Origin: Candidatus Omnitrophota bacterium
GTDB lineage: Bacteria > Omnitrophota > Omnitrophia > Omnitrophales > Aquincolibacteriaceae
Assembly (NCBI GenBank): GCA_030698625.1
Contig: JAUYMS010000048.1
Location: 21,879-85,878 of the forward strand
Reading direction: 5' to 3'
DNA length: 64,000 nt
The notes beneath the pieces are model-generated. The model did no database searches. It was given only the letters and a program-made list of their open reading frames with translations, and was not told the origin of the DNA. Below, in pieces: positions 1 to 37,400 of this stretch. Position 1 is the first letter of the stretch, and each line of letters starts with the position of its first letter. The translations under genes were made by a program, and so were the position numbers.

Positions 1-762
1 ATGTTTTCTTCTTCGCGCATTCGCGATACGGCGAGTGGTATGCGTGTCGTGAAGCGATCCAGTTTGCCCAAACTCATGCCCTTGCCCGACGGCTTGCATT
101 TTACGCCGGCCATGAGTGCCCGTGCGATCCTGAGCCAGGATCTCAAAATCGAAGAGATCGACATGCCTTATGCCGAACGTGTAGGCAGATCCAAATTGAG
201 CGTGTGGAAGGACGGCTTGCGCTTTTTGAGGGTCATTTTTGAGTCGGCGTCCCTTTACCGTTTTTCAAGATTGCTGAATTTCCTCGGGGTTCTTTGCCTG
301 CTATTTGCCGGCGGCCTTATGATCGTACCCATACGCTACTATCTGGAACATCGCGCACTTCAGGAATGGATGATTTACCGCTTCATGGTCGGCAATCTTG
401 CCGGGACGAGCGCGTTCCTGCTGTTTAGTGTGGCGCACATCTGTAATAAGATCGTCGCGATCACATTATCGAACCGTCCTTGGTCTGAACACCGGAAGGG
501 TCTTATGGCGCATTTGCTGGCGCAGCGCCTCTTCTGGCTTCTGCCCCTCGCACTTGCTGTGGCCGGCGGATTGCTCGTGCTCCCGAGTTTTTTAAATTTA
601 TTGACTACCGGGATGACCTTTGAACACTGGTCGCGTTTTATGGCCATGACGTTTCTTTTTATCGTAGCCATCATTCTCGTTGTGACACGTCTCGTGGAGT
701 ATGCGCTTGAGCTGGTTGCGGCCCGCGTGGCCTATTTAAAATCGAAAAAAAGTAATATGTGA
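1..762 (+). CDS. C-terminal portion of a GT2-family polyprenyl-phosphate glycosyltransferase (GtrB/ArnC/DPM1-like); the 5' end lies outside the window
   Basis: ORF is open from the window edge. Block DMPYAERVGRSKLS resembles the R-x-G-x-SK region closing GT2 catalytic domains. It is followed by 3-4 hydrophobic helices, the same layout as the complete GT2 gene at 3174-4103. Confidence 0.5.
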   Translation: MFSSSRIRDTASGMRVVKRSSLPKLMPLPDGLHFTPAMSARAILSQDLKIEEIDMPYAERVGRSKLSVWKDGLRFLRVIFESASLYRFSRLLNFLGVLCLLFAGGLMIVPIRYYLEHRALQEWMIYRFMVGNLAGTSAFLLFSVAHICNKIVAITLSNRPWSEHRKGLMAHLLAQRLFWLLPLALAVAGGLLVLPSFLNLLTTGMTFEHWSRFMAMTFLFIVAIILVVTRLVEYALELVAARVAYLKSKKSNM

Positions 763-6354: not shown

Positions 6355-6411
6355 GAGCTCAAAAAACACGACACGATCGATGCGAATACCTTATTAAAGG
6401 GTAAGGAATAC

Positions 6412-7236: not shown

Positions 7237-7259
7237 GGAAGCGCGAGCCAGATATCATA

Positions 7260-8392: not shown

Positions 8393-8407
8393 TGTTGATG
8401 AGGTGTC

Positions 8408-10381: not shown

Positions 10382-10392
10382 GGAACTGCTAG

Positions 10393-13850: not shown

Positions 13851-13904
13851 GGGGAAATCGCATAGAATGTACGCCTCCAGTCTCCAATCACGAGGTGTTA
13901 TCTC

Positions 13905-15578: not shown

Positions 15579-16174
15579 AAGCCTACGCGGACTGGATGGC
15601 GCAACTCATTGAGGCATTCATTAAGTTTCCGGGAATCGGACGGCGTTCGGCGGAACGGATCGTTTTCTATTTATTGAAAACGAAGCGTGAAGAGGTAAGT
15701 CGCCTTGCCACGCTGCTTGGGAAGGTCCGCGACACGGTCTTTTTCTGTGACATCTGCCACAATTTTTCCGATGCCAAAATCTGCCACATCTGCTCGGATC
15801 CGGCGCGCGATCAGGGTGTCATCTGCGTTGTGGAGGATCCTAAAGATGTCATCGCCATTGATAAGACCCAGGAGTATGTCGGTGTTTACCACGTTCTTTT
15901 AGGTGCGCTTTCGGCTCTCGACGGCATCGGCCCTGCCGAAATCCAAATACAGGGTCTTCTGACGCGCGTCAAAACCGGTAAGGTGAGGGAGGTTATTATC
16001 GCGACCAATTCGAACACCGAAGGGGAAACAACCTCCCTTTATCTGGCTAAAGTCCTGAAACCGCTAGGCGTCAAAATTACCCGAATTGCGCGGGGGATAC
16101 CGGTCGGAAGTCACATCGAATTCATGGATCAAGCCACCCTGTCGCGAGCCCTCGAAGACCGCGTCGCGACGTAG
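15575..16174 (+). CDS. recR: Recombination protein RecR
   Basis: HhH region PGIGRRSAERI, C4 zinc finger CDICHNFSDAKICHICSD, Toprim ICVVEDPKDVIAIDKT. ATGA overlap with dnaX. Confidence 0.95.
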   Translation: MKAYADWMAQLIEAFIKFPGIGRRSAERIVFYLLKTKREEVSRLATLLGKVRDTVFFCDICHNFSDAKICHICSDPARDQGVICVVEDPKDVIAIDKTQEYVGVYHVLLGALSALDGIGPAEIQIQGLLTRVKTGKVREVIIATNSNTEGETTSLYLAKVLKPLGVKITRIARGIPVGSHIEFMDQATLSRALEDRVAT

Positions 16175-16454
16175 ACGAACGTCCGGCTTCAAACCTCACA
16201 TTCCGCACTAGCGCGGCCTCTCTCAGAATGGCCGCTTATAGCATTTCCTAACACTTTCCCCCCATCCGCTTCAGGTGCAAGTTTAATCACGTATGAGTAA
16301 TGGATTTCTAATAGAAGTAGGCTTTTGGCCCTGCCCGGTTTGACACCCCAAATTTCACATGGTTCACTTTGATAATCTTATTCTCATTAGAACTTACGTC
16401 AATTGGACTGGATTCAGAATGCCCGGGGATTGGGGCAGGCTATACCCCTAATTA
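16175..16454 (+). promoter_or_regulatory. 280-bp non-coding leader upstream of the giant ORF (promoter/5'UTR candidate)
   Basis: The only sizeable intergenic gap on this strand between 13.9 and 50 kb. AT-richer than the flanks. Contains TTGACA (16339-16344) and GATAAT (16371-16376), but with a non-canonical 26-nt spacing. No clear Shine-Dalgarno sequence before ATG 16455. Confidence 0.3.
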
Positions 16455-19400
16455 ATGAAAACAAAAAAACACGAAACCCAAAATCAGAACTTTCATCCGC
16501 TCCTGAAAACTACTGCGTGGATCATAGCGCTCGTTTTTCTCGTGGATACCGTTGCCTGGTCGGCGCCGGTGACGCCCGAGGCGAATATTCCCGCACCGAA
16601 CGTCTCAGCTTATCTTTACGATCTCCGGATTCCCGAAGCCATCGGTAAAATTGAAACGCGTTTTTTGCCGGCCGTCCCAGGGAAGGATACTCCCGTTATT
16701 ATTCACATCCAAGACGCGCACGCGCATCCGGAAGCCCAGCGAAATATCCAAGCGATCCTGGACCATCTCGGCAAGAACAACAAGATCGACAGGATTGCCG
16801 TAGAGGGTGCATCGGGAAAAATCGAGCCGGCCCTGCTTGAATTCTTCTCCGTTCCCAAAGTCAATGACGCCATGGCTGAGTACCTTACGGACATGGGGGA
16901 GTTGACCGGCACGGAACTTTATGCTCTTGAACATAAGGGGTCGGCCGCTTCGGTAAGCGGCGTCGAAAACGTCGATCTCTACCGCCGGAGTTTCTCCCTC
17001 TTTGAAGAGATCAAGTCCGAAAAAGAGAGCGTTGAAACGGCTCTGAGTTTCTACGGCCGCAAACTCGAGGAGCTGGAGATTCGGTACCTCGGAGAAGATT
17101 TGCGCCGATTCGTGGCACAGCGGAGGTTGTGGCAGGCAAAACAGGCAAGCGAGTCTCACGCCTACTTTAAGCTTATCGCCGAGTTTTCAGAGCGATACTT
17201 GGCCCTCAACTTTTCGGACCCGCGCATGCAGTTCACATGGCCGCATCTCGTGCGCATGGTCAAAACGGGCGAGATCGAAGCGGATCTCAAGCCGGAAGCT
17301 GCAGCCGGGGAGAGTTCGCAATTGGTTGTCGCTATCGCTCGGGCGTATCCCGATCGGAGTCCCATGAGAGATTTCCTTATCGGAGGGATTGAATCCCTGG
17401 GTTCCGAAGAAGGCCCTAAGGCGTGGTTGTCCCGCCAGAACGGCTTTGCCGACGTAAAAAACGTTCGCGAGTTTACGGAATTGCTCTATCGGGAATCCCT
17501 TAACAAGGATTTTAATCTCTTGAGTTATCCCCACCTGCTGAACCTTGCCGGTTTTCATATTTTGCGGGAGGAAATCGATGCCACGGCACTTTTTGCCGAG
17601 ATGGCCAAAATTGAAAAGCGTCTCGAAGAAACAGTGGTTCGCAGTGACGATGAGAAGATGATTCTGAGTCTCATCCATGATTTCGAACTCATCCAGAAGC
17701 TGCTTTCGCTTTCCATGACTCGCGACGACTACGAGGCCTATAAGACGAGAAAAGATGATCTTACGCCGCGTAGGCTGAGCGAGAGATTCCTTAAATGGAA
17801 CGTGTTACCGCAGACGTTTCCCGTACTCGAAGCAAAAGCAGTCGCGATGGCTGAAGAGTTTTATCTCCTTTCGCGTCGGCGCGACGAAACGCTCCTGGAA
17901 AACGCTTTGCGCCTTCCGGGGACCTCGCATCTCGTGCTCGTAGCCGGCGGTTTTCACAGCCAGGGTTTGCAGGCCTTAATGAAGGAGAAAGGAATTGCCC
18001 ACGCGGTCATCAGCCCGCGCATGACTCAGTTCGACAGCGATGGCCTCTATGAGAAGGTGATGCTCGGCGAGAACGCCAAGCTGGATCTGCTGCAGGCTAG
18101 AGGAACCGCGATCGTTAAGCGCCTCATGCTTCAGTTGTCGCAGGAATACAGAGCCTTGGGTCCTCTGCCGCGGGCCGAAGAGCAGGCGGTTCTGGCATTG
18201 CGCGCCATTCACAAAGGCGTCGAGGTTGCCAGAGCTCTTGGTATTTCTGAAAAGACATTGGCTGCAGAGTTAAGCCGGCAGATTACGCTCTCCAGCATTT
18301 TTAGCGGCACACGTTTTGGCGTCGAGTATGACGCGGCCCGAGACCGTGTTGTCTTCGGAGTTTGGAATGATCGGGGCCGCCTAACGCTTTTGGGTGAAGA
18401 TGCGGCCGTTACCGCACAACCTGCTGTATCCGATGCGGCTGCGTCGCCGAAACGAGTCGATGTTACGGCGTGGTATCTCGGGCCTGAGTCCACGCTTTCT
18501 GTCTCTTCGGGGTTTGTGGCAGCGGGCGAGATCTGGTCCAACCGCCGTACGTCGCGTTCCCGATCCGAACTTCGCGTGGAACTTGTCGCCCAAGAAAATC
18601 ACTGGGTCGGAAATTTCGTTAAGAACATCCTCAGAGTGGTGCGCGGGCGCGACAAAAACACGTATCAGCAGCTTATCACGGCCATTGACCGGGTTAATCG
18701 TCTCAAGCGTGAACTTCTCAATGACCGGGGTCCGGAGGGCCTTTGGGAGGTTCACAGTGAGGCCGATATCGGACCGCACCGCTACATCCTGAGAATCGAG
18801 AATATCGCGGAGCGTGTTTATAACGACCACTTGATCTATGATTTGCCCATCGCCCATCGCATCGCCTATGTGCTCGCGGTTTTTGACGCCAAGAATTTCC
18901 CCACACTGCACAAGCGAATCTACGATGTGGTTCGTGAGATCATCTACAAGCCTAACAGTGATGAGCTTGAACATAATCCCAGAGCCTATCGCAACCCGTC
19001 TTCCAAGGAAGCTGAGATTACGGCATCAGAGTACAGCCGCGTTGCCAATACGGTTTCGCTTGCCGAACATCAGGACACGATTGATCGGCACACGCTTCTC
19101 CAGTTTGCCCTCAACTGGATCGTATTCGACATTCCGCGCAGTCATCGCCTGGCCCTTAATAATGAGAGTTTTACTGCCGAGGGGCTCAAGGAACTCGACG
19201 TGCCCGGAAGCGGAAATATTCCTAAAATTGCCTTCATTACCGACTATCACGGCGCCACGCGTGTCGGGTCTCTTTTTGCCTTTCTTAGCGGAATTCGCAG
19301 CGATTACCGCAATGTGCAAAGCGTGGCAGATCTGGAAGCGAAAATTCTAAAACGATACGCACAACAGTTTCCGGGCAAGACGGCAGGCGAAATTATTGCT

Positions 19401-22400
19401 CAGATGAACATGCATGTCGTCGGAGCCGGAGACTATGTCGATCGCGGACCGTGGCCGGATCTGGGATACGAACTCAATAAGTTCTTCCGCGCTAACGGAA
19501 AACTTAAGTTCATCAACGGAAATCACGAGGTCTGGAAAGACTGGAATATTACCGGTGTGCACCTTCGAGTGCACGATGCGTTTCGTACCATCCTGGCCAG
19601 TGAAAAATTGGCAGAAAACCATATTAGCGAACACCTCAAAATCATAAGGCCGTTTGTCACCACCGTGGGGTGGGATGCTGTAAGGGATCAGGAGAAATTC
19701 ATAGAGCTGGAACGGCAATTAGCAGATCTGATGGCACGCTTCTTGGCAGAGGCAAAGAAAAACGGAGGTGTCCTGGATAATGAAACGATCGAAAGGTATG
19801 CCAATGTGGTGATTGATGCGGGAACTAACATGACGCATTCGCGTGAATATTGGTCACGGGAGTGGGGCGTTCACGGCAACTGGTTCGATACCCTGCTTGA
19901 TCGTTTGAATGCCCGCATGATCAACGAGGGCCGTGCGGCGGCCAATGACAGCATTAATGACAGCCTTCGCGATCGCTTGGCCGCGATTCTAGAGCCCGCA
20001 CCATTCGGAGAGTTGGATGCTGAGATTCGCGAGGGCCTCGAGGACGTTCGGGAACAGCTGTTGACCAATATCCGAAGCGGAGAGGGTCTCTTTACCCCGG
20101 TGGATTCTCTGATGTTTTCAGATACCGACGAAGTCCGCGCCCTTCTTCGTCGAATGAAAGAGCTCAAACGTGCCAACGAAGAAAAGCGCTTGCTGGGGCT
20201 CAGCCACGAACAAGTCAAGGTGCCGAGCCCCTTTGAGGAGACGGCAAAAGTGGCTCGGAGGTATCTGGATGAGACAAATAGGATTATCGGGTTCTTAAAT
20301 CGGGCCGTGAAAGAAGCAGAGATTCCGAGCTTTGAGGCAGAGCTGATCACGATGGAAAATATGCGCCATAACCCCGTGGTCCTCGAAACGGTGCAATGGG
20401 ATCTGGAGAATTTCAGGCAATTCTATGTTCACTCCCTCGGCATGGCGGTATCGCACGGCATCATCCCCTTTAAAGAGGGAACCACCGAGCTTAATGTCAG
20501 CTATAAGACCCGGGGCGGGCGCACCTTCGTAGGAGTTGCTGCGATCGATGCCATGCAAGTTGACATACGCCGGTTCTTTCAAAATATCGATAAGATCGAG
20601 GACACGGCTGAGTTCCGGCAGGAAATGGAAGACGCCCTCGGTCCCGCCTATGATATTTTGCAAGACTGGTACTCCGACCGACTCGGCATCCTCAAGGCGC
20701 CGGCGGTCTTACACTTTGCAGACATCGGCGGACCCACCAAATTTTACTTTTCCGACCCCACGGCTTACAGCCCCAGGAGATTTCAACCGAATGCGGGTTT
20801 TTTAATGTTTGGCCACGTCCCGATGTCAGAAATGAAAAAACGTGACCTTCCTTATCTCAACATGTCAACCCGATGGGAGTTGAGCGGATTCGTCAACGGA
20901 GATGACGGTATGTCCGAGGGGTATGACGGCCGCGGCTCGGTCGTTTTGATTTTCGACCGCGACGAGAATGGAGTGCTCGAGGGTTTCAGGCGATATGGTT
21001 TCAAGCGAACCTCTTTCTACATTATCAATAAGCTCGTGCCGCCGGAAGAGAAACTCCTCGCGGCGGCTGTGGCGGCCCTCAAAATAGCAAACGGAGAGAC
21101 CGAGGCGCCGGCCGATCAGGTTCGCGCCCGTGAACTGCAAGCGGAGATTGAAGAAAGGACGGAACGCATACGGGAATGGAAGGAAAGGGCCGAGCGTTTG
21201 GACCGAGACGGAGAAGAGATCGAAGATATTACGCTTTATAAGATTCCTCAAAAAACGGCGGACAGAATTCGCCCTTTCTTAAGCGGCGAGGGCCTGCTCA
21301 TGCATATGGTGGAGCAGAAACTGGAAGAGACCCGGAGAATTTATGGAGAGCTCTTAGAAACCGCTACTCAGTTCGGACGTGTTTGGAAGAAAGCCCATTA
21401 TAGGAAGAAGCTCAAAGCAACAAGCCGACAGCTTGCGAACTTTCGTATCACGACCGTCAAGAAGCTCCTCGATCGCGCCTCCAAGGCCTCCGGCCGGCTG
21501 CATTCGCAGGAAGTGCGGAGGCGCATCGACAAAGCGCTGTGGTACGCAAGGACTTGGCGCTATGCTCAATCCGAGAAGGCCGTTACCGCAGTTCTCAATA
21601 TCGTTCAGGGCCCGGAATTTGAATTGGGACCCAGCTCACAGCTTTTTGAGGATCTTGAGCGCGCGTATCTTATCCTCAGCAGGCATACCATGTCAGAGCC
21701 GGTTCTACTCCAACGCTCCGAGCTGCGGTCTGACCCTGCTGTTACAAGCACTGGTGAATCTGATGCTGAAGCTTTCAATGTCTATACCCCCGACAAAATT
21801 GTGCGCGGTATGGAGGAGGAGATCGGTGAGAAGCCGGTGCTCCTTGCCACCTTCTCAAAATACTTGAGGGCCATTGTGTCCCAGAGGACGGAAGGGGGCC
21901 GTACTGTGGCGATGCCTCCATTTTTCGTGATACCCGCCCATCTTTCCGAACGCATGCTGAGCAGCGGTCAGCCCTTCGACGAAATCACCAGAAGAAAGTT
22001 ATTGGAGAATCTCTTCGAGTTTAGCGAAAGAGGAACAGAAGCATTCGGTAAACCCGAATCACCGCTATTTCTTTCGATACGTGCAGCTGCACCGCGAATC
22101 GTGCCCGGCCAGTTTATTACTATCCTGAATGTCGGCATTAATGACGACACCTTTCCGGGTCTGGTTCAGCGCTTGGGAAGCCTTGAATTAGCCCAGAGCC
22201 GTTACTCGAAACTGATTCGCGACATTCTAATCGAAATCTATAATTATGAACGTGACGACATTAAGGAAAGTATGGATGAACTCCCGATCGAAAATTATGC
22301 GACAAAGGAGGAGTGGCGTTTAGCCGCACTGCGGAAGGCCTATCGAGATTTGCGCCAGGAAGAATTTCCGCAGGACGTTTACGAACAAGTGCGAATTATT

Positions 22401-25400
22401 ATGGATGGTATTTACAACCGCACACGATACACGTCAGCCGCTGCCGGAGCGCAGTTCCGAGGCGGTATTATGTTGCAACGCATGGTTTTCGGTATCGGAG
22501 AGAATTCTTACTCGGGCGAAATCGCCAGTCGGACATCAGAAGGGGACCGAATCATCCGGGGTAATATGGAGGCAGGCGTCCAAGGGGATGAAACAACGGG
22601 TGTCGTTCGGGTCGGTCAGGAATTCTTTCAGAGGTACCCGGAATTTACGAAAGCTATCGACGGTATTTTGACGGACGGTGAAAATTTTCTGCGCACCGCT
22701 GTTCAAATGGAGATTACCATCGAGAATAGCAAGGTCTATTTATTACAGCTGAAAGCGGCGGAGCGAACCAGTGATGCCGCGGCCGCCGTCATCATGGATT
22801 TGCTGGATCGAGGCGTCATTAATAGTGAGACGGCCTATGATATGGCTCAGAATGTCGACACGGATGCGCTGCGATTTGAAGAGGCGCTCGCGGGGACCGA
22901 TGCCCTGGTGAAGCTTGGCGGGGGTATTCACGTCTCACCGGGTGTTGCCGTTGGGCATCCGGTCATGACGAACGTAGGCGTGAATGAGAGCCGCCAGGGA
23001 GGAGTCCCCTACATCTTGGTAAAGCCCGAGATTCGTGCCCATGATCAGGAAGCCATTCAGGGTGCGAATGGCGATAAGGGTGCCGCGGCTATTGTGGCCC
23101 TCAATCAGATCGGAAATCATGCCGAGACCTTGGCGCTTATAGCGAAGATCCCCGCCGTGTTATCCGTACCCTTCGAGGAGATCGATTTACCACAGGGTAC
23201 ATTTTCGCTGCGTGGATCTGACGGTCAAGTGCATAGACTTCAGGAAACCAACCCGAATGACTTTATCTCGATTGATTCAGACGGCGCCATCTATTTAGGT
23301 AAGGCTGAAATTGTAAAGAGCCGCCGCAGCCTAAGTAAGCGTTCCGGTGATTTCCTTGCATGGAAAATGAAACTTGAGGGCAAGACGCCTGCCTTTGCCG
23401 TCAAAAGAGTGCCTTTCGGCTATGAAAGCTGGAGCACACCCTTCATCGAAGATGTGGTCAGTGAAAATGATTACTACCGCACGGTTCGTGACGGAGTGCG
23501 AGGCGATAAGAAGGTCTTTTTAATCGAACTTATTGATGTGGTCGAAGCCGAAGCAAAGCCGGATAAACAGAAAACAGAAAAGAAGGAACCTGAATATCGC
23601 ACTATTCCTGATTCGGTTATTATCGCGGCCGCTCAAGACGTGTTGGCTCGTGCCGACAGCATCGAGCAGTTCACTTTCTGGCTTTGGCGGCACTACGGTA
23701 AAATGGATCTTAATGCCTATCAGTTCGAAGAAAAAACGGAGAAGGGAAAAGAGATATTCTACGTGCCCTCTCACATTAAATACACAAACGAATCCGCCGC
23801 TCAAATTGCCTACATGCTGCGCGTCCTCAAGGGAAATCCTGAAAGGCTCGCGCAATCCATGTTTCATATGGTTGAGCGCCACAAGCCATGGAGCTATACC
23901 TTTAGGCGGGGGATCATTCCGCGCCTGTCGAGAGAGGATGCGTCCAAGTTCCTGGCTCTGGCGATGAACGAAGCTGTGAAACACGGGCAGAACCACATTG
24001 ATTTTATGATGCCCAGGCTCTTCGCGGAGCTTATCGAGAGTAACACCGAATTTGCGCTTGCCGTAATGCAAAAGGAATTTGGTCCCTTACAGCGCGGTTG
24101 GATGATGAATGGACTTTACGAGTTGTATGAACATCGTCGACTGCGGGAACGGACTATGGACTTTGATCTCCCTGCGGCGGAAAAATTAAAAGCGTTTCTG
24201 CTCGATAGTGTCGTGGATGCGGGAATCGAGTATCAGGTGGCGGAGAGGCATGAACACGGACCTCACGCCAGACGAGAAGTGACATGGACACATGACCCAC
24301 GCCTGCAGGACGAGATCGTTGCGTGGATTCGTACCCGAGAGAGGTCGGAATTGCGCGAGGCAGGGACCGCGATGCGGTCCGAGCTGCGCACCGGACCCGA
24401 TTCCGAGTATGTATCGAATGTCGTGTCGATATCGACAGCTGAGAATCTGTTGGATATCACGCCGGGCAGCATCAGTCAGCGATTTCCGGAATCAGACTAT
24501 GAGGCCCAAATCGATTGGAACCCCGGACTCATTCAATCAGACCGTGGTCTATCGCGGCTCACGATCATTCCGAAGACTGAAGGCAAAGCCAACCTTACCT
24601 ACGTCGTGAAGAGGGCCAACCCCATCAGGCGGGAGCTGGCGGCGCATTTCCAAGGTGAGGGCGATGTAGCCCAAGTTGCGTCTGATAGCGGGTTCGGCCC
24701 CGCCCTATTGCATCAAGAAGGCAACGTCATCATCGAAGAAAAATATCCGCCGGGGCATCACATCGCAGCTCGCGGTTTACTTCTTTCGCCCGTCGAATCA
24801 GCCGCCTTTGGCAGAAAGCTCGCCGGCGCACTTCACAGTATGATCACTCGGGGTCAGCTCGTTTACTACGGCGAAACACCTCAAACTCACATCATGATTC
24901 TGCCCACGAACAAAGACGGCCCCCGTATCCGCTTTTTGGACTGGAGCCATTCGCTTCCATTGCAGAATGACGCCGACCACAAAAATAAATTAGAGGCATT
25001 AAAACAATATGCCTACGTTATCAAAACCTTCTTGGCAAAACCGAGTAATAACATTTATGCATGGCGTAGTTTTGAAGCGACTTTCTTGAGTTTGGCGGAT
25101 ACGCTTGACATCGACTATTACGATGACCTTATCCACCAGGTTCGCAGCTACTATGCAAACAAGGAGACGAATCCGGATAAGGCATCTCGGGAATTATGGG
25201 GTGACTTTTTTTCGTATGCTGACGCGGCTCCGGACCTGGGCAGCGTTCGGACGACTATTGACCAGTCTGTGCCTGCAGAACGAGCTCCCGGAAAATTCGT
25301 TCAGAACCTACTGACATCGGTCAACATTGATTCGCAAGCCTTGCGCTCCGTCAAACTGATCTTGGAGCATGAGGAATATCTTGACGCGGAAATTGCGGAA

Positions 25401-28400
25401 GCCGTCGCGATGGACCTATTTGAGCGCGGCTACCTGGGGAGTAATGTGAATCGTTCCGGCGATGAAATTGCCAACGCTGCGGAAAGCTACCTTGCAAGTC
25501 AGGGCGTGGCCGCAGATGCCATAACGGCCATGCAGGAATCAATACGCCAGGAATTTTCCGAGAAGAACACGGGAATGGACAGAAGGTTTTTTTTAGGTGC
25601 GATTCAACGATTGGCCAAGCAACACAAGCTTTTCGAATCAATGAATCGGCGCGCGTACCGTCAGCTCGCAGAAGGTTTCTTCTCCTATCTGGTCGCTATT
25701 GAAGCAAGGCGAATCACCTTCAAAACCTCGATCTTACCCAACCTGCGAAATCGCGACGAGGGCGAGACATTGGAAGTTTACCTTGAGGGGAATCCCGATA
25801 CCCCCATCAAGGAATATGCGATTAAAGGGCGGCACAAAAACGGGGGCGGTGAACCTGCCCGTTCAACCCGTGCTTCAGAGATGAATTTGGGTCCGCACGT
25901 TGTCTTTGCGCGCAACGAGGAAAGGGTTCGGGAAAACGGGGGCATGCGGAGAATACCGCTCCGCATCGTAGAAGATTTATTGCCTCGCGAGCGGAACATT
26001 CGTCGTATCAGCCCCGGGACATTCACAGAAAATCCACAATACATGGGGATCCTGGTAGATAACGTGGCGACGAAGATTTACCGCATGGTTGATCCGAAGC
26101 GAGGCGACAGGACCATATTGCACCGTTTTGATAATGCCCCGGACCATATGTATATTTTGGACGCTGAACACGGTTTTGATTTCCTGATGATCGACTGGGG
26201 CTTTTCCAACTCGCTTATTCTCCCGACTTATGGCAACGATGCCGCCAAACATCTGGAAAGCATTTTCTCCGTCCTCTTGAGCGAGTTTAATAAGTTCGGG
26301 CCCGACTTTTGGAGCCGGTTCAGAGAGACCCTCTTGCAAATAGCGCGGATCAACGGAGGGCTGCTCGAGGCAGAAATCGAACAAGCGTTTGATAAGGTGC
26401 CCTACCAACCGTCTCGGCAGCGTTCCGAATTGCGCGAGGCAGGGACCGCGATGCGGTCCGAGCTGCGTATGCCGGATGAAGAAATTGCCGATCGGATACT
26501 GGATAAGATTTCACCCGAACGTCGGGGCAAGCGGAGCGTCACAAAGGCGCGTGTCCAAGAGCTGCAAGATGCCGTTGAAGCGGTGCGAACCATGTTGACG
26601 GTAGAAAATACCAAGAATGAACCCCCGGACAGCGACGTCTTTAAGAGCGAAATCTTTAATGCGATAGTCGACAGCAACTTAGTCCACGATTACCGGTTTA
26701 CAACCGGCCGGAACGCACCCAACTTTGCCGCAATGTTTCTTATCGACACGCAAAAACTTTTCACGATGAACGGAGATTACTTCGATGAAGCCTTTCCGGG
26801 AGAGGAAAAACCCCGCTATCTGGCAGTGATGGTAGGCCGGGATGCGGTGGTCGCAACAGCCATTCAAAGCGATCTCAATACGGATGATTTCAAATTTTGG
26901 GTGGACGGCGATTGGAAACATAAACTGTCCTCTGATTTTGACCTCGAGCAGTTTCTGCTTTCAAAAGGGGGCGTGCGCTGGTGGCAGATCGGAGAGTCGG
27001 GACCCTTGCGCGATGTTACTTATGACCAGAAAATAGCAGGAATACAAAAGATAACGAAAGACAAGCGGTTGGAGGCGAAGCATTTTCTCCTTGAACTTTT
27101 CAACCTTGCCCGAGCCATGTCGAACAAGAATCCGCCGGCGAATGTCTTTTTTGAGGGCGGGAAGACGGTTATTTTGGCAAGACAAAAGACGGACTTCGGG
27201 AAGTATCACAATCAGGATGAGATCCTCGCGCGGGCCCGGGAATTGGCTCTGGGCGCGGAGGTCCCAGTTGACGAATCATTTTCAACGGAGGATTTCAACG
27301 GTTGGTTTTCAGATGATGCGCGATCGCTAGAAAAGGACAGCCCCGTTTCAAAGCGCCACCGGATCGCGCAGCAGGTATTCAAAGAGCAAGTCGTTCGTGA
27401 CTGGGTCAAATCCGCGATCACAACAGGTGTGCTCGGGAAACGGTACCTTGCGGGACCGGACATGGCGACCGCGGATGTCATGAAGCTCGTTCAGGACACG
27501 GCTGATGAAGTCCATAACGATCTCGATTTATACCCCGCGCGCGTGACTACCAGTATCAAGGGGGAAGATGCGACCTTCGACCACATCAAATGGCGGACCA
27601 CGAGCATTAGTGTCGTGGCAACACTGCTTTCTTTTATTGATAACGAAGAGTTGATGAAGCGCGCCGGTTATGATCCAACTGATCCGGAACTAAAAATCGA
27701 TATCGTCATTCAAGGTTTTGGTGATGTGGGAACCGGGATCATTAATTACCTCTATGAGTCGCATAAGAACCGCTTGGACGGTTATGGGGGACCCATCCGC
27801 ATTGTGGGTGTTTCGGATGCCGACGGCGGGATCTACAACCATGGAGGTCTCGACATGGAGGAATTAAGGCGCCTGGCCAAGATCCGCGTGGGCGATGATG
27901 AAACTGAGGGAAGGCTTGTCGGCTTGTGGGATGAGTATTTGGGAGGGGAAGAGGCCCGCAAAGAGCCGGAGGCCAAGAAGGAGGCAAAGACACAGCGCGT
28001 TGACCACGGTAATGACATTTTCTATGTGCGTAATAAACATGAAGGGCGCATACGTGAAAGGCCGCTGATCGGAATCCCCGCCGCGGTGCCCGACGTTTTT
28101 CGCAGTGCCCAGGATATTCAGAAATTAAAGGACGATAGTGTCGTTGGGCTTATTTCGCCGGCGAACAATGTGCTCAAAGAGAACGCGGGCTTGGAGGCCG
28201 TACTGCAGGATCTCGGTATCTTCCTCTATGACGGCCCGCATGCGGGATTGGGCGGGATCTATTCGTCTTCGGCCGAGATATACGCCATCATGACGAGGGG
28301 CCTAGAAGCCGTTCGCAGAACTATGAGAGGTAACGACGATGTCTATGAAACGGATTATTATAAAATCCGTACACAGAGTGCCGTTAGAAACACTTCGCTT

Positions 28401-31400
28401 TCGATCAGCCGTTGGCTCAATCATCAGTACCTTTCAGCGATTAAAGCAGGTAGGCCCACCCATTTTTCTGAGATCCAGCGCAAGCTGGCAAAGAGCATTC
28501 GCCAAGCGAAAGGAAATTTCCTTAAAGACCCGAATCTGCGAGCAGGCCTGCTCAAACGCATTGAACGTACCATCGACAAGGTGCTGCCGAGATTGGAAAC
28601 GACTCATGAGGGCAGGGAACTCACAGAGCAACAAAAGAGGCAGCAGCGAGATCTCGTTAAACTTATTATCATTTTAAAGCACGTCGTCGATAGTGCTGTG
28701 GAAACCGTTGTTTATGGCCACGATCCCGACCATATTCAAACTCTCGTAAAAAGACTTGAAACGAACGACCGCAGTACAAGGCGAGCACGAGTAGCCCAAC
28801 AGATCGCGGCTTATGACCTCGCCGTGATGCGCGCTGCGGGTACGGCGTCGACAATGATTGCAGTCTTGCTCGATACAGACAATCGTGACGCCTTGACCCG
28901 GTCCAATGCGGCCTGGGCGCTCGGGATGCTGCGTTCGAAAGACGGTATTCCTCATCTGAAAACGGCACTAAAGGACAAAAGCGTTTATGTCCGTGTCGCC
29001 GCCAGAAGAGGCCTTGATCAATTTTCTCCGGCCGAGCTCGCAGAGACTGAGCGCTCAGAACTTCGCAGTGCGGATACTGTCGGAGAAACAGCAGAACGCG
29101 CGCCGCCTAAGGGGATAAGAATTGCGCTCGAAAAGGGTTGGGTGATCGCCAACCACATCTTTATGTCTGTCCACGCCGCGTTCTTGTTCCCCTATTATAT
29201 TGACCGGTTTGTGGAACGCGTTCTCGTTCCCCAAGGTCTGATTCCTAAAGACCATCTCGTGTTGCTCCCCGAAAGTCTCATCTTAGAATTGATCACGGGC
29301 TTCATCTTGGCGTTTGCGACCGGGTGGATTGCAATTTGGTGGCATGAGCGCGGGCATTACTGGGAGGCCGTGCGCCAAATCACGCTTCGTAAGGATCTTC
29401 TCAAGGAAGCCGGCCGCCGGCTTAAAAAGGGCGGACTCACGCGGCTTTTCTCGGAAGTAAAGATGGCCTTTCTTGCCCCTCTCGGCAAATTCCCCGGCAT
29501 CAAACGCATCGGCCTGACCTTTATGCCGGAATCTCCTTATAACCTTGACGTCGCGGCAGCGGGACCCGCAGCGAGCGGTTCCCTGGCGCGGGTGTTATTG
29601 GCTCTAGGCATCGTGTTTATCGTCATCGGTCTTTTCGGGCATATGGCCATCCCGGCCATTATCGGCCGCGTGTTTCTCGGAGTTGGAACCGTGGCTTTTC
29701 TCGACCGCCTCTTTGCCGATCCGGGTAAACTGCGCGAACTTCGCGTGCGCGAGCGACTCGCAAAAGAGGCCAGTAAGACAGTCGCAGAGAAGATGAGCGG
29801 CGGTGAAAAATGGAGTGATCAGATGGCGGATGTAAGGAATAAATTGCGGCATCAGCGTCAGGAAGTCGTCGGATGGCTCAAGGCGCCTTGGGGTTGGCGT
29901 AACTCTGCGATGGGCGGCGTTCATACCGAGAAAGAATATCCCGAGAGTAATATCAGTATGCAGGAAGGCATGTTTATTCCCATTTCACCTAGGAATGCAG
30001 AAGACGCCCAGGAAATGACGGTGGCTCTGCAGGAGCGCTTAAAGCAGATTATTGACGGTACGGAAGGTTCCCGTGTCATGGGAATCGGTTTAGAGGGAGG
30101 CCTCGCAGCCTACATCACGCCCGCAGAGGGAGACTGGGTGCCGGAACAACGCCTTTACCGAATGATGAAGCAGGCGATCATGGACCTTGGCTATATTCCG
30201 GGTAAGGACGTGGCTCTCGCCCTCGACCCCGCAGCGAGCGAGTTAGAAAATATGTATCGTGAAGAATTTCCCGATGCCGTCGGGATGTACCGTTTTTGGC
30301 GGGCCGATAACCCCATCGACGTGCCGCGCGATTCTGAGGACCCCAACCAGCCTTCTATGATGGGGATTTATCGTAAGATGATCGCCGAAGGCATTCCCAT
30401 TATCTCCATTGAAGACGGTTTCAGTGAGCGTGACTTTGAAGGGTGGCGGCTGCTGATGAAAGAATTTGGCGACAAAATGTTTGTCGTCGCCGACGATTTG
30501 GCCACTACGAATGACATGACGGTTGAAAAGGTTGCGAAAATGGGACTCGCCAATACCCTGCTTGTTAAAGCGAATCAAATCGGCACTCTTTCAGAAACTG
30601 TCTCGGCGATGCTTGTCGCCTTAGGTTATGGCATGGACCTTATCGTCTCGCATCGATCCAAGAAACCCAATGACACCATGGAAGCCCATATCGCAATTGC
30701 GGTGTCCTCAGTCGGTCTGAAAAGCGGCGGCGGCTCCAACACCGAGCGTCTGATTGTCTATCACGAGATTGTGAAAATCTTGCGGCGCATGTCTAAAGTT
30801 CAGACGGCTTCTCCGGATCAGATTCCGGAAGACGAAAGAGCCCGGCTTGACGCGATCGAACAGGCTTTCATTAATGAACTGACGATTCGCGACATCCTGG
30901 CCTTCGAAGAGCCGACGAATGCGGGCGTGCCGACGGTCGGTGTGGAGGTCGACGTTGGTATCCCCGGCGGCAGACTACGCATTCCGTTTACGGCATCGAC
31001 ACCTCTGGGAACATCATCCGGTACGGGTGAGGCCATCCATCTAGTCGATAATGCTATTCCTGGCGGAACTTTGATCCACCGCTACAAGGATCTCTTTGAG
31101 CAAACCGAAACGGTCGGGATCTACCATTTTAAAAAGCGAATCACACGAAAGGAGATCGATGCCCTTGGCGATAGTGACCTGACAAAGCTTTGGGTCAAGG
31201 CAAATCGGTTCAAGGGTAAGGGTGTTTTAAATGCGGCCGAACATGCCGAGCACATCCTTGGAAAAGATTTTCTGGATATGAAACTTGTCGAAATTGAGAG
31301 TCTAGTCGAGATTGACCAGCGTCTCCTCAGAGTCGAGTTTGATCGTGCCGGCAGCCGCGATCAGGACACTTCCGACCCTGTTGCCATCGCTCAGCGCAAG

Positions 31401-34400
31401 GCCAATTTGGGAATGAATGCGATTCTCTCTATTTCGCTGGCCATTGCACGTGTTAAAGCGTGGTCGGAGGGTAAGGAACTTTATCATATCATTCGCGAGC
31501 AGATGGAAGAGACCATGGCGAAGGTGATTGCAGCACAGGCGGATGGTGAGTCGGCTGGTCAGTGGGCGACCGTGCTTGAAGAGAATAGTTTCGATGAATT
31601 GGTGATGGCGTTTCAGGAAGCTTCGGGCAGAATCGCACAGAGTGAAACGCCTCTCTATGAAGTCGTTCGTCAACACCTGCCGGTTTATGACATCAACGGC
31701 GGCCCAAGCACCGTCAATGCCGACCGGTCCGAGCTGCGTCAGACACAGTATGAGCCTAAATCCGTTGAGGTTTTTGCCGAAGGCCTTGAGATGGGAGAGG
31801 CTGCTGCTGAACGTATCATCGAGGTGGCGGCGAAATACCACAACGAGGGCGGGGCCGTCATCCAAATTCCCACAGGATCTACACCGGTGCCGATGTACTG
31901 GCACCTCATCAAGCGCTTCGAAGAAGACCGCTCAATCGATTTGTCGCGCGTCAAATTTTTTAATCTCGATGAATATGTCGGCCTTGAGGCCAACCACCCG
32001 CTCAGCTACCAGTTTTTTATGCAGGAAGTACTCTACAAGCATCTTGATGCTATCGATAAGCAGCAGCGATTACAGCGTGCGCCGAAACCCGAAAACCGCA
32101 ATGTGCCCTCGATCGATTTTTTGGAAACGCATACCGGATACCGCCGCGAGCAGGGTGCGGACGCGGCTGCGGCCATCTATGAAGCTCGCCTTGCCGAGGC
32201 GGTGAAGGCGACGGGGCGCAACATATCGGACCTTACGATTCTGGGCGCCGGCGGCGCCTACCCCTTAGACGGACCCAACGGCTTCCTTAAGACCGACGAC
32301 GGCCGGTTTATCCTGGCCGGCGGGCATATCGGCTTTAATGAGCCGGGTTCCAAGCTGACCGACCGTACGCGTGTCATCAACCTGACGGCCAAGACCAAGA
32401 AGGACACGGGCTTTCGCTTCGGTAATATCCTCAAACGCGGCGATTATCGCGGCCAGTGGGCGGCCAAGGTGCCGGACCAGGCGATTACATTGGGTGTTGC
32501 CAATATTTTGCAGAGCGCCGAGATTCTTCTCCTCGCTAACGGCGAAGAGAAGTCGATCGTCATGAAAGAGGCCTATGAAAACGAGCCCAATCCGGATTTT
32601 CCCGTAACCTTCCTAAAATATCATAAGAATGTTCACTGGCTGCTTGACCGCGATGCCGCCAACAAGCTGCCGCATGTGCTGACACCCTGGACGGAGTATG
32701 AGGATTACGAGTGGACTCAGACAGGCATACGTCAGGCTGTCATCGAGGCACTACGCCGCAATCCCGGCATTACCATCGAACAACTGCGGCGCAGTCATCT
32801 CAACGCTATCGGCGTGACAAACCCGACTCTTGCCCGCTTCGGCGGCATTACGCAGATCAAAGAAGATCTCCGGACCTTTCTGCAGCCGCACTTTTCAACC
32901 GGCAGCAAGGCTCTGTTACCGCGCCGCCAGAACATTGTCATTTTCTCGCCCCATCCTGATGACGATGCGATTACCTCAGCGGCGACGATCCGCAAGCTGG
33001 TGGAGCGAGGCAACAATGTCACCATCGTTTATCAGACCGGAGGAGAAAATGCAGTTCGCAAGGAAGGTAAAACGATACAGATCCACGCGAAACTGGTCCG
33101 CGATTTCATTGCCCGCAAGGGCAAGGATCCGTCCGGCGTCGAAGACCTCGAGCTTCAGCGCATAGCACGTATCCTCACACGCAAAGAGGAGGCCGACAAC
33201 GCCGTTGCTGCCGCAGTTCGCGGCGCACGTTCGCGGGGAGGAGAACTCGGCACCGTGAAAACATTATTTATGGACCTGCCTTACTATTATGCGCGCGGTT
33301 TCGTTGACCAGGCCGCAGTGAGTGAGCAGAAGGATGTGATGCCCACCGTCGACGTATTGAATCAGCTGAATCCGGACCACATCTTTATTTCGGCCGAGCA
33401 GGACCCGCACGGGGCGCATGGCCTCGGCGTCAAAGCCATTCAGCGGGCGCTTCTGCACAACCGGTCCCGAGTGTCGCGGCATGTCAAGATCTGGGGTTAC
33501 CGGGGCGCTTATGAAGAGTGGCCGCTCGAAAACCCGGAAGGCCTCGTCATTGTTCCCTTCGATGAAGCGGCCATGGAAATAAAAATTGATTCAATCCTTG
33601 AGCATGTCTCCCAGCTGAAGCCTCTTTTCCCGAGTTTTGATCCGCGTGAGTTCTGGGAAAGGGCCCGTGACCGCAACGGAGCGACGGGCCGATTGCTGCA
33701 ACAGCTGGGTTTGGTTCCGCCTGACGGCAATTTCTATGCCGAGGTTTTTCGCATAATGACGTTTGAAGAGTTCACCGGGGCACGCTCGGAGCTGCGGGTA
33801 TCCGTCAAAGAAGTCTTGGTCGGGCTTGCGCTCGTGGGTGTGCTCGCGACCGGGTCGCACGGCGCACTACCGGCGAATCAGACGCCCACGCTTGCCCGTG
33901 CCACGCTTACGGACAGAAGCACGCTACCTTACGGGGTTATTTCGGATCACCCGGTGGTTGTCCTGACCGCCGATTCTTTTACGGTTCAAAAATCCGGGAG
34001 AAACCACTACCTGGTGCCTTCAGGAAGCGGTCTCAAGATTCAAGTCACTGCCGGCAGTGTCGAGGTTCGTGACGGTCTCGTGATTCAGGTCAGCGAAGGG
34101 GACCGGCACTTGGCGGCGTTCAATCTCAAAGGGGAGGTCAAAAAAGCCGTTGCGGCCTCGAATGAACGCAAACAAGGTGAGCGCGATTTGACCGACCTGC
34201 GGCAATTGGCGGTCAATTTAGGGACGGCTCTGAATCGCTCCTTTTCGAGAATAGACAGTGTTTCCCATGATTTTGAGATAATGCAGGCATTGAAGGCGTA
34301 TCGAGATCGTGTCGCAAAAGGTATTGATCTCGAGACGGATAAGGAGGCGCAGGAAGCTGTCGCCGAGATCGTCGCGGCTTATTTGGCGCGCATCGAGGCG

Positions 34401-37400
34401 GAACAACAGATTCAGCGCGGCATTGCGGATGCCGCCGAGCAATTGCTGCAAAGCAAGGACGTTTACGTCAAGGGCGCCGCGGCGAGTCTGCTGCTTGAAG
34501 TCTACGTGGCGGGCCGCATCGAGAATCTCAAGCAGTTTGATCGTAAAGCGCATCGGTTCGTTTCGCTCGGCGATCCCGCCGAAAAATACCGCAAGCAACT
34601 GGAAACGGCCCTGGCAATCGACGCGAAGGCCCTCGACATTGCGGTGACTGCGTTGGAGCAGGCGATCAAGGCATTAAAAGATGAGATCGCGAAGCTTCAA
34701 CCTCTCGTAAAGGCGGCAGACGATGAGCTAAAAGCGCTTGAAGTTGCCAGATCAACCGCCGAGAAAGCTATGGGAGATGCGAGGCAAAAAATCACGGCGG
34801 AACAGTATAAGCTTCGCCCCAAATACCTGTCGCGGTCAGGGGCCGCCGTCGGTTTGATCGCCCGTCTTGCCGAGGCGGAAAAAGATCTGACGACGAAGGA
34901 GAAGCGTGACGCGGCGATAAAAATCAGGGAAGAAATCGCTGTCGTCGAAGCGGCCATCCGTCAGCTCGATAAGGCGGTGGGTGCGGAGCAGACTAAGTGG
35001 TCCGCCGCGGACAAGGCGGTTCCCACGGCCCGCGGCAAAGCGATGCGGGTGAGTGGGCAGCTTACGCTGCGTCAGAAACCACTCAAGGCATTGGAAGATG
35101 CGCTCGGTCCGATTCGAGTCGCGCAAGAGGCCGCGGCAGCATCGCGCTCTGAATTGAGAATATTAGAAAGAGTAAAAGAAAGAACTCGGAAGATTGTCAG
35201 CGGAATCAAGTCCTACTCCGCTGCGTTCACGTATTACACGCAGGGAATAAGGCGCCGTCTCGACTTTGCCCGGGAGGTCGCATGGGCTGTTCTCAAGACC
35301 CGCCCCGCGATATTTATCGTTGCAGTGAGTCTTTACCTAGGTCTCTTTATGTGGGGCCGAGAGGCATTGCATGAACGTTATGTTCGGCCCAAGGTTGAAG
35401 TGGTCCGTTTTGATGAGCAGGGCCCGAATATCAGCCGCATCAGAATCGTCGACAACTCGATGAACCAAGCCCTGACTGCAACCGAGGAACGCCCCGAGCT
35501 CCCGTTTGCCGTCGTCCGCGCCCTTCGGACCATGGGGGCGACCGATGCGATAAGGCTTTCGCAGGTCAAGCAGATCGGCGCCACCGACTATCGCGAGCTT
35601 GACGACGGTAATCATGCCGTCACCATTAGTGCCGAGGCCCACGATCCCAATATGGTGCATCCGCCTCTGCATGATGTGACGGTTGTGTTGGAAGGCCCGG
35701 ACGAAGTCCCCAATGCCCAAGACGTGACGAATGTCCAGACGATGCTGATGGGCGAGCCGATTAAAGGCAAACTCGATTTGCAAAAGCACTTTGCCGACCT
35801 CTTCTATTTTGTGGTGGCAGGATTCGTCCCCATTCTCATTTACGTATTCGTAAGAAACGTCAAAATTGTTGCCGCAATGCCTTCAAGCATAAGAAAGAAG
35901 ACGAGGCGGAGGGTCAAGCCGAAAGAAGGCGCCGAGGATAAGCCTGCCGGCGAGGGCCAGCGACGCGACGCCGATGACCGCAAGCCCGGGGATCGCCCGG
36001 ACCGAGGCCGGCGCGACCGCTCGGAACTGCGTGAGGATGAGGGGAAAATTGTAATTGAAATTGATTTTCCGGCGAACCGCAATATCGATGACTTTCTCCT
36101 GGAGCGATTGCCTGCGATGTTACGGCAGAAGGGGCTTTATGAAACCGATGCTCTGGAGTTTGCAAGTGGTACGCTTGAGGTCGATGGGCAGACGCGCACG
36201 ATCGGTGTCAACAATATTAGCGTTCGGTACGACAAACCGGGGAAGGTTAAGCTTGTCTATAATGCGGAGCTTGCCGAAGAGCTTCGCCCCCTCAGTAACT
36301 TGAAGTATGAGGCATCCGATGCGGTAAGTGCCGCGGTTAAAAAACTTCTGTACTCTTCATATCGGCGATCGATGTTTGTTGCGGATCAAAAGTTGAACCC
36401 GTATCTCGACGTGGGTTCGGTGATTTATTTTAAGGACCCGGTCCCGGGCCTTCCGCCGGTCGTGGCCTTTGTCGGTGCAGGGAAGCAGGACGTCACTGTG
36501 GGCGAGGAGAAAGAGACGCGAAGCACAATTATCGTGAAATCTCTCTTTGCTGACGGCAAGCAATACGCGATTCCCGTCAGTAGTCTTGGCAAAGTCAGAG
36601 GCTTGGTCGATCGCATCCAAAACGATGAAGTGGAAATGGTGATTCCGAAGTCACGGATTGAGGCTGCGGTCGGACGCTATTTTATTCCAACCATTACGAA
36701 TGAGATGGCTAATCTGATTGAGAGATCGCATGCGACTTTCAAAGATCTGGCTGAGAACGTGCGTGTCAGGTTGCGTCTTTCTCCGCAAGGACAGATGCAC
36801 TTTCACCTGAGTGCTTTCGAAGAGGATTTTGATGCGCTGGCCGAGGATGGCTTTGTCCTGAGCGGTGACACCATTGCAAGCGCTGACCTCTATCTCGACA
36901 AGACGCGGCCGTCCCTGCGCGATCTCTATAAAGTGCTCACTTGGGATCTTCCCGCGAAGGCAAACAAACGGGAGGAGCGACTGCAGGAAATCAACGACGG
37001 CGCAGGATTCGGCGCTATCATTAGTGGTCTCGTCGAGTATCAAGACTCAGAAAATATGCTGTATCTTATTAGCCCGCCTGAGTTCGAAAAAGGCAAGCTG
37101 AAGCTTGGCGAGGATGCGCGCCAGATTGTTTGGACGGCCGGTTCCGAAGATGGGCTGCTTTTCGACGAATCTTTCGTTAAAGACGGCAAGCTTTCTCTGA
37201 AGTGGAATGCCCTCGACGGACAGGCGTGGTTTGTTGCCGTCATGCGGCCTACCCTTGATGTGAGTGACCGGAAACTGGTGATTCGCTTTGATCCGAAGAA
37301 GTTGGCGGAGCTCCCCGAGACGATTCATTTAGAACTCAAGAATCCGTCCGGGACCTCCATTCAACACGTTGAGTTGACCAAGGAAAGTCTTCAAGCGGCA

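Follow-up and report, generated by a model that had tools for sequence, protein, structure and literature searches.

A giant open reading frame (ORF) of a Candidatus Omnitrophota bacterium, encoding a protein built as a chain of ∼17 enzyme-like modules separated by the pentapeptide RSELR, carries two nearly identical copies of a double junction, RSELR-EAGTAM-RSELR, one at either end of a single kinase-like module (module 4). The ORF is located in a stretch of 64,000 nt (positions 21,879 to 85,878 of contig JAUYMS010000048.1, GenBank assembly GCA_030698625.1), hereafter the window, whose numbering is used throughout. We read the double RSELR as a processing-site linker of an exported polyprotein, and the likeness of its two copies as the product of a recent non-reciprocal copy of ∼41 nt from one junction to another; in our judgement this combined reading is evenly poised between right and wrong. 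The kinds of phenomena involved, a processed polyprotein and short-tract conversion, are known; the use of junction peptides that differ from lineage to lineage to mark off the modules in giant exported multi-enzyme proteins appears to be a new pattern.

The duplicated double junction

The direct-repeat pair (24340–24388 and 26419–26467) is 49 nt long, with 46 of 49 positions identical (94%), and is the sole direct-repeat family in the 20–31 kb part of the window. The start-to-start spacing is 2079 nt, i.e. 693 codons, and both copies are in register in the frame of the giant ORF. From 24345 and 26424 onward the copies match at 43 of 45 nt, including a perfect core of 41 nt. A first-pass annotation of the window had described this 45-nt pair bracketing module 4, and its description was reproduced in identity, core length, spacing and frame.

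Similarity between the copies ends immediately beyond the repeat, where the flanks are unrelated. The pair is the longest repeat of the 30.9-kb ORF; the other repeat families in the ORF are either the RSELR codons themselves or matches of 18–25 nt at chance level. Eleven 31-mers are common to both copies, and these are the sole repeated 31-mers of the entire window. The 18-nt spacer GAGGCAGGGACCGCGATG occurs only at these two sites, with up to three mismatches allowed (0.07 occurrences expected). A search of JGI metagenomes with the degenerate RSELREAGTAMRSELR pattern produced no matches.

Given the shared peptide RSELREAGTAMRSELR and the codon usage of the gene, the probability of observing at least 13 identical codons out of 16 is P = 5.5e-5. 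Identity beyond the constraint of the peptide thus indicates shared recent ancestry or selection at the nucleotide level, not peptide constraint. The differing codons are numbers 1, 2 and 16 of the 16 (AGG/CGT, TCG/TCC and CGC/CGT), and the chance of all three being the outermost ones is 4/560 = 0.007. This placement of the differences at the outer ends implies that the copied tract is ∼41 nt long, with both ends inside RSELR codons. The two RSELR halves within one junction differ from each other at 5 of 15 nt, and these differences are the same in copies 1 and 2; the doubling must therefore predate the copying. The pair has what is expected of a copied tract, namely identity above the level imposed by the protein and sharp borders with the differences at the edges, and the proposal of a recent duplication or conversion made in the first-pass annotation is borne out by both probabilities given above. 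The same annotation stated that all other RSELR sites differ in codons and in neighbours. This is correct for the neighbours and slightly too strong for the codons, as two pairs of sites (aa 1754/10004 and aa 3334/5091) have identical 15-nt strings, with the identity stopping at the motif.

RSELR sites as module delimiters

The giant protein contains 18 exact RSELR pentapeptides, compared with 0.025 expected from its composition, and RSELR is present in no other frame of the window. Positions flanking the motif are not conserved. Near-variants such as RTELR or RSEIR are absent from the giant protein, and no RSELR site falls inside a domain match. Homology to relatives opens 0–20 residues past an RSELR and closes 7–16 residues ahead of the next one. 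The 17 segments delimited by RSELR sites are mutually unrelated, as determined by an all-against-all BLASTP comparison. A motif-profile search among 5.8 billion proteins detected no RSELR-rich protein beyond the giant protein.

All 18 serines of the RSELR sites are encoded by TCN codons, with AGY codons constituting 40% of the gene's serine codons (P about 1e-4). A change between TCN and AGY serine codons must pass through a non-serine codon. The exclusive use of TCN therefore fits junctions that propagated by descent under unbroken selection, and suggests that the RSELR junctions share such descent.

Module 4

The 677-residue module between the two double junctions corresponds to the mature part of two free-standing secreted homologs, P0001 and P0003 (the latter encoded on contig L002), which have signal peptides of their own. 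BLASTP homology to P0001 starts at the first residue past the second RSELR and stops seven residues short of the next. In the AlphaFold model of 24300–26520 (mean pLDDT 72.6, seven-sequence alignment) both double junctions are located in stretches with pLDDT<50 (model residues 19–38 and 706–732), which flank a confidently folded two-lobed body. The double junctions alone among the RSELR sites were modelled, and the structural evidence for a linker pertains to these two. A Foldseek search of PDB with the module 4 model found protein kinases only, with weak scores (E about 1e-4, TM to target 0.4–0.47), while no match was found in Pfam or NCBIfam. The term 'kinase-like', taken from the first-pass annotation, can thus be kept at the level of the fold, for which it is a fair description of the predicted structure; it has no counterpart among the Pfam and NCBIfam families.

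A module 4 profile, used in an exhaustive HMMER search, yielded 24 relatives, the nearest of which are 35–38% identical. The sole named relative of any module of the giant protein is a Candidatus Omnitrophota metagenome-assembled genome, with 37% identity in one module. The position of module 4 varies among relatives: the module order is 1-8-4 in P0004 versus 1..4..8 in the giant protein; in P0016 and P0019 module 4 adjoins the enolase module; in P0001 it forms a separate protein, flanked by junction motifs. The GC content at third codon positions (GC3) of module 4 is 0.584, against 0.602 ± 0.023 for the gene, and its codon usage is ordinary as well. We considered a recent foreign origin of module 4 and rejected it, as neither its GC3 nor its codon distance departs from the range of the gene itself.

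Junction peptides in related proteins

The membrane and enolase module of the giant protein is 44–50% identical over its full length to regions of P0004, P0016 and P0019, the value of 50% coming from a comparison of the module alone; the homology begins 1–20 residues after one RSELR and ends 11–16 residues before the next. P0004 (2,607 aa; contig L012, 3028–10851) has three modules in common with the giant protein: module 1 (35% identity), the enolase module (48%) and the kinase-like module (31%). The sequence EKSESR of P0004 is aligned to DRSELR of the window, and the three [RKL]SExR motifs of this protein (0.27 expected) are located at its three module boundaries. On contig L013 (1201–14727) three consecutive long proteins, including P0019, contain 15 L[AKT]SD motifs versus 0.39 expected. 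Some of these copies (LKSD) directly follow signal peptides, and in P0019 the LASD motifs at aa 642 and 1555 bracket the enolase module, which is aligned at 662–1552.

Another junction peptide was observed in two further relatives. In P0002 (2,604 aa, from groundwater; contig L003, 1801–9615) the motif [AST]GLEE occurs seven times, once immediately behind the signal peptide and otherwise between domains, with two of the copies flanking the kinase-like domain. In P0001 (contig L001, 4072–6603) AGLEE is located on both sides of the kinase-like domain and, again, directly after the signal peptide. Relatives thus keep the junction in the same place but differ in its peptide, each lineage using one sequence of its own throughout. 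This is what would be expected of sites read by a trans-acting factor with specificity differing between lineages.

Hybrid forms joining two of these dialects exist: RSELRAAGLE (aa 8247), RQELDRAGLEE (P0001) and RSELREAGTAM (the double junction). A search for the full hybrid, RSELRxAGLEE, gave five matches, approximately the chance number, three of them in tiny open frames. In the other two, on metagenome contigs from different samples (L008, 3652–3684, and L009, 11382–11414, minus strand), RRSELRPAGLEED follows a hydrophobic stretch. This was rejected as evidence for a hybrid form: the 130-aa ORF is doubtful, the contig is of high GC content, its neighbours are unrelated and the match is probably due to chance. 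Both RSELR and AGLEE are undescribed in the searchable literature.

Predicted processing and candidate proteases

The pattern described above has the properties expected of a polyprotein, namely autonomous units in one ORF and a boundary peptide far above chance frequency, and both double junctions lie in stretches modelled as linkers (pLDDT<50). Judging by the sequence, RSELR is most likely a lineage-specific site at which a secreted polyprotein would be cleaved, and a processing protease would be the simplest trans-acting factor to read the junctions.

Three of the seven loci of relatives have a gene for a Peptidase_M48 lipoprotein (lipobox SGC/AGC), no more than two genes away from the multi-module gene. 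The M48 enzymes of contigs L013 and L001 are 40% identical to each other; no M48 homolog is present in the 64-kb window. Within the giant protein itself one HExxH was the only classic catalytic signature to be found. We observed that the membrane region of the enolase module (29067–31739, aa 4205–5095) has conserved HE[RM]GHY, AAGPxxS and LD[RF]xxADPG motifs in the order of site-2 proteases, which this HExxH/AAGP/LD region may weakly resemble. The M48 lipoprotein appears to be the better lead as a candidate trans-acting junction protease.

Origin of the pair

The most likely route to the present pair would be gene conversion guided by microhomology, or template switching, over the 11–15 nt of microhomology that the motif provides. 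An RSELR site that was still single would have aligned with the two RSELR halves of a double junction already present, and would have acquired the 33-nt extension (EAGTAM-RSELR) from it; the recipient would retain its own sequence in the leftmost codons (Arg, Ser) and in the final base. Recombination across the 41-nt perfect repeat so formed could then remove or duplicate the 693-codon module without loss of frame. The proximity of the two junctions favours conversion. Two other origins were tried and rejected. Target-site or tandem duplication as the source of the 33-nt extension is at odds with the 5 of 15 nt by which the RSELR halves of one junction differ, and tandem duplication of a module is at odds with the lack of similarity between modules and of any similarity outside the repeat. 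No ortholog of the giant gene was found in the databases searched.

Several observations weigh against the reading of the pair as a copied processing-site linker. Conversion alone leaves unexplained that the twins flank the same module, for which the prior is about 15/120 if two of the 16 junction positions are drawn at random. The strong hairpin formed by the double junction means that selection at the nucleotide level could also preserve the identity. No second genome or population variant was found by which the copying could be dated or oriented, the population being present in one public run. As to processing, no protease was identified in the window, and none in the giant protein was matched by Pfam; the membrane HExxH region gave a sub-threshold Pfam match to Peptidase_M50 (E = 0.077) and no PDB match, and its model is unusable (pLDDT 45).

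Alternative explanations

The identical junctions on both sides of one module would be explained directly if the pair were a scar of insertion, that is, if the kinase-like module had recently been inserted, or moved from another place in the giant gene or from a different multi-module gene, into a pre-existing double junction between the pyruvate phosphate dikinase (PPDK)-like and dehydrogenase-like modules. Crossovers would have occurred in RSELR codons, with the junction duplicated as a by-product (Campbell-type integration or a long target duplication), and the pair would mark a portable module cassette. The variable position of module 4 among P0004, P0016, P0019 and P0001 agrees with this scenario, as do the end points of the tract inside RSELR codons; moreover, the N-terminal RQELDRAGLEE of P0001 is similar to RSELREAGTAM (shared pattern RxELxxAG), as if the module may carry some of the double junction along when it moves. 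However, GC3 and codon usage of module 4 are ordinary for the gene, its nearest relatives are just 35–38% identical, so that no donor is identified, and the mechanism requires a junction to be used twice, with no empty-site allele found. We regard insertion as a possible, if doubtful, origin of the pair.

A second alternative concerns the function of the motif rather than the origin of the repeat. RSELR could be a non-proteolytic linker, such as a docking, sorting or modification motif, with the giant protein working as one chain; the double junction would then be no more than a linker present in duplicate. No protease has been identified, and the motif stands directly after the signal peptide in P0001 and P0002 (AGLEE) and in proteins of contig L013 (LKSD), where a cut would free just a few residues; a tag retained by each module would fit better. 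On the other hand, a strict five-residue motif without conserved flanks, placed in flexible linkers at the very edges of units found elsewhere as free-standing proteins, is the classic signature of a polyprotein cleavage site, and the M48 lipoprotein gene occurs within two genes in three of the seven relatives' loci. A non-proteolytic role seems to us somewhat unlikely.

Hairpin at the double junctions

The spacer codons and the codons of the second RSELR make up an imperfect hairpin of 15 bp. The 60-nt windows on the two cores have folding energies of −31.9 and −29.1 kcal/mol, versus a gene background of −13.6 ± 4.5 kcal/mol and −29.8 kcal/mol for the best of 2057 windows; the GC-corrected z-scores are −3.4 (copy 1) and −2.8 (copy 2). 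The 14 single RSELR sites are unstructured. The double junction is thus among the most stable local structures in the gene, and the evidence that the structure is under selection is modest.

Folding so far below the gene background, not seen at the single sites, could mean that the pair is an old duplication held identical by selection on a hairpin in mRNA or DNA, and that its identity says nothing of recency. The hairpin could make ribosomes pause, as an aid to co-translational folding or export, or could be an RNase processing site in the 31-kb transcript. Yet the unpaired bases of the loop and bulge are identical too and compensatory changes are absent; the dinucleotide-shuffle z-scores are just −2.1 to −2.4 in a region that is GC-rich (0.68–0.70); and the structure was noticed after the fact, in two copies that are not independent. 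This makes an old, hairpin-preserved duplication distinctly unlikely.

Assembly check and recombination potential

An independent Logan assembly of run SRR13727534 was located via exact matches to the products of the recR and response-regulator genes on either side. Two of its contigs (L010 and L011) are 100% identical to window positions 5575–24377 and 30499–48946, respectively. The first contig (18.8 kb) ends at nt 24377, which is the base where a k=31 de Bruijn graph has to stop when the first shared 31-mer (from 24348) is preceded by two different sequences; in the reads of SRR13727534 the core therefore occurs behind two different sequences, as it does in the window. The collapse in short-read assemblies anticipated in the first-pass annotation was thus seen in part, as the k=31 assembly does break at the repeat, with two left contexts in place of a single collapsed copy. 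The same break argues against the scenario, raised there as well, of a mis-assembly with just one copy. The second contig starts at 30499, within the enolase barrel, and no repeat within the window accounts for this start; k-mers in common with other enolase genes of the sample are a possible cause.

A chimeric join or a mis-resolved repeat, with one real copy or with module 4 brought from elsewhere, would draw on the fact that the repeat exceeds small k-mers and that the k=31 assembly is fragmented exactly there, but it is highly improbable: an independent contig is 100% identical over 18.8 kb and ends at the predicted base, 41 nt is far below the read length and the larger k of standard assemblers, and neither copy interrupts the reading frame, the edges of the modules or the similarity to free-standing proteins.

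RecA-dependent exchange in E. coli requires a minimum of roughly 25 bp, which the 41-nt repeat exceeds. A crossover between the copies would plausibly delete or duplicate exactly 693 codons in frame and leave one intact double junction. The module gain or loss proposed in the first-pass annotation appears supported, at the evolutionary scale, by the shuffled module orders in relatives; no variant with the module deleted or duplicated was found, the population being known from a single public run. Three features of the pair are additional to that annotation: the strong hairpin, the position of the tract ends within RSELR codons and the equivalents of the junction motif in other lineages.

Module content and genomic context

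The giant ORF is preceded by dnaX, recR and a set of sugar-modification genes and is followed by genes for a response regulator, a PHP-domain protein, an alpha/beta hydrolase, a histidine kinase and others; the locus is a bacterial chromosome, not a phage or a plasmid. Residues 1–37 of the giant protein form a Sec-type signal peptide or anchor, as judged by eye. The coordinates of the ORF, its modules, the RSELR sites and the hairpins are given in Table 1.

Module 3 had no Pfam match at E<=0.01, despite matches to PDB and TIGR01828; the PPDK-like segment from RSELR to RSELR is 876 aa long and the matching PDB PPDK chains are 873–876 aa, which makes the segment about as long as an entire PPDK. 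In the enolase module the C-terminal barrel precedes the N-terminal domain (circular permutation). Further modules resemble, by Pfam, NCBIfam and PDB searches, a metallophosphoesterase, a 6-phosphogluconolactonase with PIG-L and a 2-hydroxyacid dehydrogenase. For the C-terminal 2,052 aa no relatives were detectable.

Four internal transmembrane-like segments were observed in the giant protein, at aa 4268, 4377, 5777–5800 and 6448; these may imply that modules are located on both sides of the membrane. One of the four is a hydrophobic helix positioned directly after the RSELR at aa 5777 (RSELR-VSVKEVLVGLALVGVLATGS; window 33783–33860), which, by its sequence, resembles an internal signal-anchor that would serve the module behind it. 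Downstream of the giant gene, at a distance of ∼10 kb (57662–60890), there are genes for an OEP/TolC-like outer-membrane efflux protein and a HlyD-family membrane-fusion protein, not obviously linked to export of the giant protein.

Table 1. Coordinates of the giant ORF, its modules and junctions in the window, and of M48 lipoprotein genes on contigs of relatives
Feature	Location	Strand	Basis or remark
Giant ORF, 10,303 aa	16455..47366	+	ORF list, translation; all Pfam, NCBIfam and PDB matches in its frame
RSELR site aa 703	18561..18575	+	translation
RSELR site aa 1754	21714..21728	+	translation
Module 3, PPDK-like, aa 1759–2629	21729..24341	+	phmmer versus PDB 1dik, E=2.6e-29; TIGR01828, E=1e-38
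Junction copy 1, RSELR-EAGTAM-RSELR, aa 2630–2645	24342..24389	+	sequence, translation
41-nt perfect core, copy 1 (inferred copied tract, both ends inside RSELR codons)	24348..24388	+	
Imperfect hairpin, copy 1, 5+3+7 bp, perfect core GGACCGC-GAT-GCGGTCC	24352..24390	+	−31.9 kcal/mol
Module 4, two-lobed kinase-like, aa 2646–3322	24390..26420	+	BLASTP edges, AF2, Foldseek, homologs
Junction copy 2, RSELR-EAGTAM-RSELR, aa 3323–3338	26421..26468	+	sequence, translation
41-nt perfect core, copy 2	26427..26467	+	
Imperfect hairpin, copy 2 (same structure)	26431..26469	+	−29.1 kcal/mol
Module after copy 2, Glu/Leu-type dehydrogenase-like with HEAT repeats, aa 3339–4199	26469..29051	+	Pfam
RSELR site aa 4200	29052..29066	+	aligned to RFE- in P0004; positional equivalent LASD aa 642 of P0019
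Membrane HExxH region and circularly permuted enolase module, aa 4205–5090	29067..31724	+	Pfam and relatives
RSELR site aa 5091	31725..31739	+	aligned to KSESR in P0004; positional equivalent LASD aa 1555 of P0019
RSELR site aa 5777, then hydrophobic helix	33783..33797	+	translation
RSELR site aa 6231	35145..35159	+	translation
RSELR site aa 6522	36018..36032	+	translation
RSELR site aa 7228	38136..38150	+	translation
RSELR site aa 7313	38391..38405	+	translation
RSELR site aa 7546	39090..39104	+	translation
RSELR site aa 8247, hybrid form RSELRAAGLE	41193..41207	+	translation
RSELR site aa 8846	42990..43004	+	translation
RSELR site aa 9154	43914..43928	+	translation
RSELR site aa 10004	46464..46478	+	translation
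M48 lipoprotein gene, contig L001	3157-3963	-	
M48 lipoprotein gene, contig L012	10867-11841	-	
M48 lipoprotein gene, contig L013	249-1109	+	

Implications

For giant Omnitrophota proteins the points of cleavage were reported as unknown, and the proteins were for this reason not split for structure prediction (West-Roberts et al., 10.1101/2023.11.21.568195). The locus described here offers a testable answer, for one giant protein, to the question of whether such a protein acts as one chain or is cut, and where, with the same strict pentapeptide marking each boundary. The junction motifs could serve as a rule for splitting giant ORFs into units for annotation and structure prediction, and the repeat accounts for the breaking of the giant gene in assemblies with small k. 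If the pair arose by copying, it would be a footprint, dated by identity, of recombination at junction codons, and would point to a simple route to in-frame gain, loss or reordering of modules.

A broader proposal, which we think unlikely, is that the junction codons double as in-frame recombination sites. Since one short coding motif bounds all modules of such a gene, exchange between any two junctions, in one gene or between genes of one genome, would swap, delete or duplicate whole modules and leave the frame intact. If this were true, the two double junctions with their hairpins on either side of the kinase-like module would record a module-cassette event, the first to be caught, and the dialects (RSELR, AGLEE, LASD and KSESR) would both set the specificity of the protease and confine the exchange of modules to a lineage.

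Comparison with known systems

Giant proteins of Omnitrophota have been described as 'multi-enzyme metabolic clusters' (West-Roberts et al. 2023, 10.1101/2023.11.21.568195; a 2026 preprint, 10.64898/2026.06.07.730766). The protein analysed here is like them in being encoded by a chromosomal ORF of >10,000 aa, tiled with unrelated enzyme Pfam domains, HEAT repeats and transmembrane segments. Post-translational cleavage was proposed for those proteins, via C39 or S8 peptidase domains (10.1101/2023.11.21.568195; 10.64898/2026.06.07.730766). In contrast, neither a C39 nor an S8 domain was found in the present case, which has a strict junction pentapeptide instead. No junction motif or junction repeat is described for Omnitrophota giant proteins in the searchable literature.

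MARTX toxins of Vibrio are very large secreted proteins with unrelated effector modules, which are freed by cleavage in the linkers between modules, and the module repertoires vary between strains through recombination within the gene. These toxins have RTX repeats, an internal cysteine protease cutting after Leu and type I secretion. The giant protein is likewise large, secreted and multi-module, whereas its modules resemble metabolic enzymes; Pfam detected none of the MARTX domains in it (RTX repeats, cysteine protease or type I secretion signal), and a Sec-type signal is present at the N-terminus instead.

In viral polyproteins (e.g. at picornavirus 3C and potyvirus NIa sites) a short lineage-specific recognition peptide marks each boundary, and the polyprotein encodes its own protease. 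One ORF with many units and a boundary peptide is the arrangement seen here as well, but the giant protein is cellular and exported and, unlike viral polyproteins with their cis protease, has no established cis-encoded protease. Yeast precursors of the alpha-factor type have Kex2 sites and a spacer, with the repeated unit being the product. The double junction is similar to such prohormone or pheromone precursors in that two putative sites are positioned a few residues apart, so that the spacer EAGTAM, with or without RSELR, would be releasable. It differs from them in that there are two spacers only, flanking a folded module of 677 residues.

With respect to the repeat, the hairpins at both ends of module 4 led us to consider an integron-like cassette; this was rejected, as the scanned ORFs of the window include no integrase or recombinase and the element is part of a continuous coding frame. 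Short-patch conversion and ectopic recombination in bacteria leave an identical tract of tens of nucleotides with sharp edges, at which any differences are confined, and can delete the intervening DNA. The pair differs from ordinary short-repeat exchange in that the homology guiding it appears to come from codons for a functional peptide motif, of which a single gene has 18 copies. With the motif codons as the guide, any exchange from site to site would preserve the frame and leave modules whole.

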